A stretch of 64,000 bases of DNA from Saccostrea cucullata (taxonomy: Eukaryota): positions 1 through 64,000 of the forward strand of contig NW_026920771.1 of assembly GCF_032062105.1 (NCBI RefSeq), read 5' to 3'. Numbering within the stretch: position 1 is the first letter of the stretch; every line of letters starts with the position of its first letter. A program made the translations under genes and the position numbers. The notes under the pieces are model-generated. The model worked only from the letters and a program-made list of their open reading frames with translations, was not told the DNA's origin and did not search any database. Shown piece by piece: positions 44,776-47,700 of this stretch.

Positions 44776-47700
44776 CTAATCTTCATCACTAGTAGCATCA
44801 AACATCTGGAAGAAAATGTACAGAAATTTAAGATTATTACACATGTTCATAGTTTTTTTTCCATAACTGTAAACTGATCATACACAGACACTAAATTTAA
44901 TGTTTGTATTATTAGAGTAGTAATATTACTGGTATGGAATGTTAATATGATGCAAAATACCATTTTCCAAGCTTCTTATCACCATTAATTTACAATTTCT
45001 TGTATAAATTCATTCTCATAACTGAACACTAAAGTGAACACTAAAATTTGGATTTTACCACATACATGTACATAAATTAACTATTATGATCAACACAAGA
45101 GAAAAATCTGACTCACATCCATCAGATTCTTGGGTTCTATGCTGACTTTGTTACTCTCCTCTCCGCCCTCCATCAGGTTATTGTTGCTACTGTTGAATGT
45201 TGGGGTGACAGATCGCTCATCCTCAAAACTGCTCTCAAAGCTGGTGTTTGGCGTCTCTGGTTTTCTACATAGAAATGCATAAAGGTACAGTTTACACCAA
45301 ATATGACACATCTATTTACGATTCTTTGCCATTTACAATCCACAAAATAAAGCATATCGAGTTAATTTTAATATTGACATCTTTTCTCCTTTACCTGGAT
45401 TTGCAAAACAAAGGAGAGGAACTCATTGGTGGACTAATATAGTTCAAAGGTCGTTGTCTTGACACCGGTGATGTGAATGCTCGTCTTGGAGCAGGCTTAC
45501 TAAAATTATAAAAGAAATCTTCACTAATTTCAACAAAGCTTTTAAATATTAATGACCTTTTTGAAGTGTAATATGTTATGTAAAAGAAGTTTGCCAGAGA
45601 TATACTTTCATATTACATGTATATTTAATGTTTTGTAAATTTTGAGGGAAGAAAAAAATAATTTTCAATCAGGAATAGTTCCATTTATAAAACCATCATG
45701 CAATGGAAATTAAGCCTCTATAAAACTGAAAATAGTGACTAAAGGCTGTACTTTGTATCATTCTTACCAGGGTACAATGAATTCACTGAAGCTGTCCCCT
45801 GAGGAGCTGTCTAAGGGTGACCCCATGGAGTTATTGTGTATACTCAGGTCATCCTCAAAACATTCATCTGTCAAAGTAATTCAACAGTTACAGTGTATAA
45901 CTACACAGACTACCACCCTTTCACTGTGCATATCATTTACATTAGGTAAGGTTACACAGTTTGCATTTCATGTAATTTTGAAAGATAATTTCCGGTATGT
46001 ACAAGTATGATTGTTAAACCTACCATCAGAAATACTGTGATCCAGTCCACTGGAGCTGTGGTTACTGTAACTACTGTTATGTTTGCTGCTAGAGCCGACA
46101 CTAAGTCTGGAGTTTCTCCAGTAACTGGGTGTGAACACACTGGTGATCAGGAACAAAAAGGCTAGTATGCCAGAAAAGAAAAATAACAAAGGAAATCTGT
46201 TTCCGGAATCACTATATATAAATGGCACAGTCTTCGATAGAAATCTGTGATATTTACTGATATGATATGCTTGTAAGATTTTGAGCAGGGTTGAGCAGGG
46301 TTGACAAGGCATTCACCTACAAAGCACGTTCCAAAGTCCATTGATTTGAATGAAGAAATAGCCGCAAATTATTACTTCGGCGCCAAAGTACTTGACATAT
46401 ACATATTTCTTTTGCCAAAAAAAAAATCTTCCTGCTGAGATAGAAACATGCACTTACTGCTCTTTTGTACATGTACTCTCTCCGTCTTCTCTTCCATACC
46501 TACAAAGTAACCAGTAATTTAATATTAAAGGACTGATACAGTAAATTATGCCTTTATTTTTAGATTAGAAATACACTTACTTTTCTGACATATGGAAAAG
46601 CTAGCACTTGGTCTACTGTGGGTCGAACTTTTGGATCAGGATCTAACATTTGTTGTATCACATACTTCAGGTCAAAAGACTTGTCTGCAAAGTAGAAGAA
46701 AGCCATGTAAATATTCCTGTCATAAATGGATTTATTTTTTCAAATAACTAGGAAATGACATATCCATCATGACTGTTAATTCATTAGCTTGATTATACTT
46801 ACCTCTTAGGAATTCTTCAGGAAGTTGTCCAGAGCGTAACATATGCCACCCTTCTCCACCCCGTGGAAGGTCAAGGTCACTTGCTAACTCCAGTATTGTC
46901 ATGCCAAGACTGAAAACATTAATGCATGGAAGTTTTAAAAGACAAAAGTTTAGTCTCACACATGAATGAATTACTCCAAAATCAACCTTTCTAAATTCTT
47001 CTTACCTGAATATATCAGCAGGTTTTCCAAACTTGCCCTCCATTAACTCTGGAGATCTAATGCGCCATTCTGAAAACTACCGCGTCAATGGCGCAAGGGC
47101 GCAGCCCAAAGTGATCCCTGAGTCTGTATGATTGTTAAACTTACCATCAGAAATACTGTGATCGAGTCCACTGGAGCTGTGGTTACTGTAACTACTGACT
47201 TGCCCTGAACACATTAACTCTGGAGACAGGTATTTGGGATCTCCTTCTTGGGCTTCAGATATATCATTACCCTTAAAAATAAATACAATTTTTTTCATCA
47301 TTTTAAGACTTTTCTACTTCTAAGATGTTATTAATTTATGTGTAAATCATTATTCAGTGCAAAAAGAGAATATTGTTCAGATACATACCTTTGTAAGATC
47401 CAATACTAAACCAAAGTCTCCCAGTTTGCAGATATCATCAAAGGATATGAAAATATTGTCTGGTTTGATGTCCATATGAACCAGATTATGGTCATGTAAA
47501 TGTTTTAATGCCTGTAGAAAAAAAAAACTTGCTGAATGAATTCAGTGGTTGGAAATCACTTAATATTGCATACAAAACATCACTTACTTCTTCACTTCAC
47601 TATTTTTACTTAGTTATAACTTATTAGATCTCAAAATTGCACTCACCATCAGCAAATCAACCAAGTAGTTGGCTATGGTTGTCTCTGATAAATCATGATT

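Follow-up and report, generated by a model that had tools for sequence, protein, structure and literature searches.

An insert in exon 8 of an oyster Myt1 kinase gene probably reflects an assembly consensus error rather than a new intron

Does the extra sequence within exon 8 of the Myt1 kinase gene (PKMYT1) of Saccostrea cucullata represent an intron in the making, an allele that has lost its function, or an error of the genome assembly? These three readings were offered side by side in a first-pass annotation of the stretch of DNA analysed here, the first 64,000 nucleotides of contig NW_026920771.1 (assembly GCF_032062105.1), which we call the window. Misassembly is now the best supported of them, a null allele stands as its rival, and intron gain is not supported. 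We put the probability at roughly 0.6 that the 156-bp insert (insert 1) is a consensus error, with a second, transposon-bearing haplotype placed ~1.1 kb out of register. The annotation had missed a repeat end in 65-68 bp that seemed unique, a possible excision of 171 nt, and a second insert in exon 12 (insert 2). The features are collected in Table 1.

Table 1. Positions in the window of the PKMYT1 features, the candidate introns and the neighbouring anomalies.
Feature	Position	Strand	Remarks
Garbled SPT5 stretch	37991..38756	+	766 bp for 82 codons (~aa 913-994); intact exon absent
Ghost overlay	38853..43100	+	Exact islands of sequence lying 2.03-2.09 kb downstream; SPT5 exons skipped
PKMYT1 (Myt1 kinase) gene	44776..49435	-	16 coding exons; sole copy within the window
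TA-4 nt-TA motif, intron 12	46000..46007	+	Possible empty or excised transposon site
Source of 72-bp copy	46005..46076	+	Match starts one base ahead of TA 46006-46007
Insert 2 in exon 12 (46316-46024)	46171..46292	-	122 bp replacing 4 bp; net +118
PKMYT1 exon 8 as assembled	47006..47271	-	266 bp; 95 bp in transcripts
15-bp duplication, copy 1	47041..47055	+	Perfect; not extendable
Dispersed transposon-like repeat end	47053..47120	+	68/68 identical to a contig of run X2 with other flanks
Insert 1	47056..47211	+	156 bp; missing from transcripts
Candidate 171-nt GT-AG intron	47057..47227	-	Very weak at either end; protein would be exact
Candidate 75-nt intron	47070..47144	-	Adds 32 aa; donor strong, acceptor fair; no splicing seen
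In-frame TAG in unspliced insert 1	47077..47079	-	First stop, codon 303 of the read-through
5-bp filler between repeat end and 72-bp copy	47121..47125	+	
72-bp copy of exon 12/intron 12 junction	47126..47197	+	70/72 match to its source, E 4e-32 within the window
9-bp copy of 47031-47039 (at 47198-47206) and 5-bp filler	47198..47211	+	
15-bp duplication, copy 2	47212..47226	+	Perfect; not extendable

Apart from the inserts, PKMYT1 is free of amino-acid decay. The initial model agrees with the NCBI protein P0125 in 529 of 539 columns and is ~90% identical to three other oyster proteins, and its kinase domain aligns with structures of human PKMYT1 (E 3e-90), as expected of an ortholog. Its natural introns (n = 15) measure 81-436 nt, and the donor and branch motif of intron 2 (48791-48390) suggest that it belongs to the minor (U12-type) class of GT-AG introns. 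Exon 8 less 171 bp is an ordinary exon, identical to P0125 over that part. Of 40 listed differences between PKMYT1 in the window and the transcripts, one inside the insert was left out, and 35 of the other 39 are synonymous; the remaining four are non-synonymous and confined to organism B. The differences common to all four runs compared are synonymous throughout (5/5, one of them in only part of the X1 depth). The idea of an old pseudogene or decayed duplicate was rejected, as there is neither decay of the protein nor a second copy in the window. In other animals the Myt1 gene is required for meiosis, and Myt1 has a predicted transmembrane domain, according to passages of PMC13398180. A search of the literature on oyster Myt1, judged by titles, found no paper on this allele.

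The patchwork that the annotation had described in exon 8 is present in every part that it named. The perfect duplication does flank the insert, and no exact 15-bp repeat within 300 bp occurred in any of 300 shuffles of 44700-49500. The 72-bp piece is indeed a copy of an exon/donor junction of the same gene with two mismatches, sitting 1121 bp downstream of its source on the plus strand, and the 9 bp after it do copy adjacent exon sequence; together with the second copy of the duplication, 47198-47211 forms a 25-bp duplication carrying one small lesion. The in-frame stop of the unspliced insert was likewise found. The remaining part of the insert is the end of a dispersed repeat, also matched in part by runs X21 and X7, whose first three bases overlap the 15-bp duplication and so give 3 bp of microhomology at that junction; the other junctions have fillers or none. 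The fold of insert 1 has no special structure (z -0.99). A 9-bp inverted repeat (47061-47095) lies within the repeat end, with the candidate acceptor at the edge of its loop. Two other origins were considered and rejected: a retrotransposon insertion, as a poly(A) tail is present at neither end, and a Hi-C restriction-ligation chimera, for which two junctions show GATC and GANTC but the parent sequences, inspected by eye, have no such sites.

We read 47053-47120 as the end of a dispersed DNA transposon that targets TA. A TA directly follows the position equivalent to 47120 in both of the flanks shown of other copies of the repeat, and a TA target beside a CAG terminus is what we take to mark the Tc1/mariner type; a hAT-like end may also fit. 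Tc1/mariner elements leave TA-4 nt-TA footprints on excision, and a motif of this form stands in intron 12 beside the source of the 72-bp copy, where it may be an empty or excised site. Motifs like it are found at 26 of 5310 TA sites, and the pattern was picked after the site had been seen. The window holds no second copy of the repeat. The ~70-bp piece gave nothing near threshold in Rfam, six chance matches among plasmids (E 2-6), none among phages, and no exact match in metagenome and viral contigs. Three perfect inverted-repeat pairs elsewhere in the window (26653-27509, 32129-32608 and 17965-18149, with arms of 63, 29 and 28 bp) are probably small DNA transposons.

The proximity of the repeat end to what would be its own flank, together with the motif at the site, might suggest that an element in intron 12, through gap repair or aberrant transposition, left a copy of its terminus and adjoining sequence in exon 8. 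We consider such a scar of transposon activity very improbable. The terminus does not face the exon target, the duplication is of 15 bp and not TA, no other copy of the element exists in the window, the footprint pattern was chosen post hoc, and the defects in the neighbouring SPT5 gene, described below, would be left unexplained.

For the transcripts we compared four runs (X1, X7, X21 and X2) of 24 listed, and all results refer to the rows listed for these runs. In each of the three runs that cover exon 8 (X1, X21 and X2; X7 does not), the 171 bp are skipped by a joint from 47040 to 47212. The annotation had proposed to search RNA-seq for the junction of the 75-nt candidate, and neither this junction (47069-47145) nor that of the 171-nt candidate is among the joints listed in the four runs, none of which is a known carrier of the allele. 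Many synonymous differences separate these samples from the window, whose allele they may lack. At site 46043, X1, X21 and X2 read the letter of the 72-bp copy and X7 reads the letter of the window. The exonic mismatch of the copy is thus a standing allele at the source exon, and because it is a common allele there, the copy likely derives from another haplotype; in other words, the extra piece carries an allele of the other haplotype. The second mismatch, in the intronic donor, lies outside transcript coverage. A joint in X21 from 45867 to 47145 (4 reads) could be taken for use of the new donor; we rejected this, because the joint is most simply explained by exon 12-13 reads that were placed on the copy, which is nearer to their allele. 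Among the 24 runs, none contains half of the words of the locus, and no DNA reads of the sequenced animal were found there.

Insert 2 shifts the reading frame, with a stop at codon 21 of exon 12, beyond the kinase domain and just ahead of a hydrophobic segment that may be the membrane anchor. It contains a 10-bp local duplication, 2 bp of microhomology occur at one of its junctions, and 46169-46208 matches another locus. A loose end in X2, compared by eye with the remainder of the insert, agrees at ~16 of 30 positions. All four runs skip insert 2, by a joint from 46170 to 46293 in X1, X7 and X2 and by an equivalent skip in X21. P0125 has a different stretch of seven residues at this place, where it reads into intron 11. 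Loss of the exon 12 acceptor was rejected as the defect, which is an insertion. Insert 2 also falls inside the 1121-bp span between the copy in insert 1 and its source.

Could insert 1 act as an intron? Excision from 47144 to 47070 restores the frame with 32 additional residues (563 vs 531 aa), as the first-pass annotation had proposed. Against a small splice-site matrix, built from 14 major introns of PKMYT1 itself, the 47144 donor reaches the 99.7th percentile (3263 GT sites scored) and the 47070 acceptor the 96.9th (3590 AG sites). The improved donor needs no selection to explain it, because the exonic mismatch of the same copy is a standing allele at the source. At 75 nt, the candidate is shorter than the shortest natural intron of the gene (81 nt), and the loop that would receive the 32 residues is 10 aa long in 79 of the 88 homologs that matched the motif and 12 aa long in the other 9 (from 146 proteins, 58 without such a match being left out). 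Splicing of the new donor to the natural exon 9 acceptor would lead to a stop after three further codons. The 171-nt excision would give the exact protein, and its donor and acceptor are at the 5.6th and 22.5th percentiles; an exact-protein GT-AG excision was available by chance in 4.9% of 20000 simulated inserts. For insert 2, the only rescue is by weak sites (scores 1.9, -7.4 and -9.8) or by an intron of 46 nt, and splicing of insert 1 would not rescue the gene, because insert 2 shifts the frame of exon 12. When the read-through exon was used as a query, the matches were all to ordinary proteins and covered 30% of it, and none contained the read-through, which is weak evidence.

A working new intron would require that the allele be real and be spliced from 47144 to 47070 or from 47227 to 47057, with insert 2 also spliced or located on the other haplotype. 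In its favour are the strong donor with a fair acceptor, the presence of an exact-protein excision, the absence of amino-acid decay, which fits a functional allele, and the precedent of Daphnia, where passages of PMC4202315 describe recently gained introns whose direct repeats stem from staggered breaks. Against it stand the short length, the enlarged loop, the very weak sites of the exact option, the poor rescue of insert 2, and the lack of either junction and of any read-through protein in the searches above. We therefore consider this reading very unlikely. Usable sites do not restore the normal protein here, since the strong pair adds 32 residues, the exact pair is weak and insert 2 shifts the frame, and the proposal of an intron gain in progress is not supported. 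The specific version of this idea, that break repair captured a transposon end together with the splice donor of the homolog and thereby created a spliceable 75-nt intron in the kinase activation segment, is to our minds a long shot. If it were true, it would be an intron birth by capture of the gene's own donor, with a source identifiable down to the allele.

Evidence of a different kind comes from the neighbouring gene, SPT5. Pfam families were found in only 2 of 30 ORFs scanned (105 were listed), which left SPT5 as the sole control gene. It is identical to its Saccostrea echinata counterpart in 906 of 911 aa, as befits a rock oyster of the Saccostrea type, with 21 exons, GT-AG joins and no stop. 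In the garbled stretch, the expected codons are present as collinear scraps in three frames (local score 47, against a maximum of 26 in 30 shuffles), and SPT5 is intact outside ~aa 913-994. Downstream follows what we call the ghost, an overlay of islands that repeat sequence ~2 kb further on. Between 38.9 and 41.05 kb it amounts to 745 bp in exact runs of at least 14. The ghost band covers 83/347 bp of the final SPT5 intron and, in the flank, 140/663 and 740/1050 bp, compared with at most 10, 18 and 32 bp, respectively, in 20 control bands; on the two SPT5 exons in the span it covers 0/96 and 0/138 bp. The differences (58 transitions and 88 transversions) are clustered, and the longest identical run of 125 was reached in none of 5000 permutations. 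The ghost band does not extend to the garbled gap, where it covers 25 bp (control maximum 28) and the global identity of 0.534 is within the controls. Because a natural duplicate would be expected to keep its exons best, the ghost suggests that misregistered reads went into the consensus. The garbled and shifted sequence lies 3-9 kb from the PKMYT1 inserts on the same contig.

Several further repeats were observed in the window. At 36131-36560, about six copies of a 73-bp unit, each starting with GT and ending with AG, form a tandem array of an SPT5 exon 3' end with its donor. Island-like repeats with drifting offsets occur at 172-357 and 7718-7930 (651-688 and 555-571 bp) and may be repeat copies or further ghosts. 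A 27-bp tandem array lies at 3861-5024. Three long minus-strand ORFs of 460, 199 and 240 aa at 15730-23834, with no Pfam match, are probably exons of one gene.

On the plus strand, insert 1 reads as the repeat end, a few filler bases and then the sequence that follows TA 46006-46007, with the letter of another allele in it. A haplotype with a transposon at this TA would have the same order immediately beyond the element. The natural end of the repeat and the beginning of the 72-bp copy are no more than 6 bp apart, at a TA, so that a single continuous template can account for the two pieces. In the consensus error that we favour, a second haplotype would carry a TA-target transposon of ~1 kb in intron 12, and a piece of that haplotype would have been written into exon 8, ~1.1 kb off register, by misplaced reads. 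The 15-bp and 9-bp duplications would then have arisen from reads that ran into this foreign sequence on either flank. The same type of error would account for both PKMYT1 inserts, and the animal itself would have an ordinary PKMYT1 of 539 aa. Further points favour this explanation: the exonic mismatch of the copy is the allele read at the source in three of the four runs; the transcripts lack the insert; two independent breaks in exons of a null allele otherwise free of decay would be surprising; insert 2 lies within the 1121-bp span and has a partial match elsewhere; and the 21 clean exons of SPT5 give way to 82 codons in scraps, followed by a ghost that skips exons. Passages of PMC8081667 count false duplications that arise when haplotypes diverge among the most frequent errors of assemblies.

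Some observations speak against a consensus error. The copied pieces are clean (68/68 and 70/72), the 2-3 bp of microhomology and the short local duplications also fit end joining, and the proposal leaves six surplus bases, where the repeat end should adjoin the TA, without explanation. In PKMYT1, offsets of 700-1400 yielded only the 72-bp copy and two 10-mers, and no shifted islands. The transposon-bearing haplotype was not seen in the data examined, and a literature search on the exact consensus mechanism found no paper. The size of the insert is in itself no mark of an artefact, because large coding insertions in long-read fly assemblies are mostly read-supported, as reported in parts of PMC8337076.

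The alternative that gains from these points is a real and recent null allele, in which end joining of the polymerase-theta type, or abortive strand invasion, mended one or two double-strand breaks and in doing so copied the flank and a piece of the homolog (repeat end plus exon 12 junction). Its mRNA would contain the stop or the frameshift, and the allele would persist in a heterozygote as genetic load. Each insert is a patchwork that combines local duplications with pieces from further away, some junctions show 2-3 bp of microhomology, POLQ insertions can copy a template that is nearby or many kb away (passages of PMC7454005), and use of the new donor with the exon 9 acceptor would itself end in an early stop. 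Pacific oysters have been estimated to carry ~7 lethal alleles per parent (a figure from part of PMC5804265). However, two exon events, or one complex event, are required without any other decay; the POLQ insertions cited, in the same passages of PMC7454005, are of 2-35 bp, compared with pieces of 68-72 bp here; the garbled SPT5 and the ghost would be unrelated; and the allele was not seen in the three runs covering exon 8. We regard a null allele as unlikely, and it keeps an appreciable share of the probability because of the points against an error, including the lack of raw reads of the animal, the clean pieces and the lack of further islands.

If the insert is an artefact, it serves as a warning. 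The nearly identical public model P0125 has the normal exon 8 protein, the one that the 171-nt excision would give, together with its seven odd residues near insert 2, and comparative studies could therefore mistake errors of this kind for gained introns or lost genes. A real insert would offer a legible case of oyster genetic load in a meiosis gene or, least likely of all, the birth of an intron with a known source.

Four known systems resemble this locus, each as portrayed in passages of the papers cited. As with false duplications from the mixing of haplotypes (PMC8081667), an extra exon piece here comes from what is likely the other haplotype, and a probable false tandem copy of 2 kb is close by, but the piece is of only ~145 bp, joined to the end of a repeat and situated within another exon. 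The neointrons of Daphnia pulex (PMC4202315) are similar in being mosaic exon insertions with direct repeats that are missing from other alleles, whereas in PKMYT1 splicing is only a candidate, the strong sites would add 32 residues and a second insert shifts the frame of the same gene copy. Polymerase-theta templated insertions (PMC7454005) share the combination of adjacent and kb-distant copies, with short microhomology at some of the junctions here, and the present pieces differ in exceeding 2-35 bp, in bearing the letter of another allele and in ending at a transposon terminus. Introners (PMC9860276, PMC12130899) likewise put part of a transposon into an exon and duplicate the target, and the edge of that duplication could supply a splice site; here, in contrast, one element end makes up 68 of 156 bp, the window shows no family of similar introns, and the duplication is of 15 bp compared with the 3-9 bp of Introner targets (PMC9860276).
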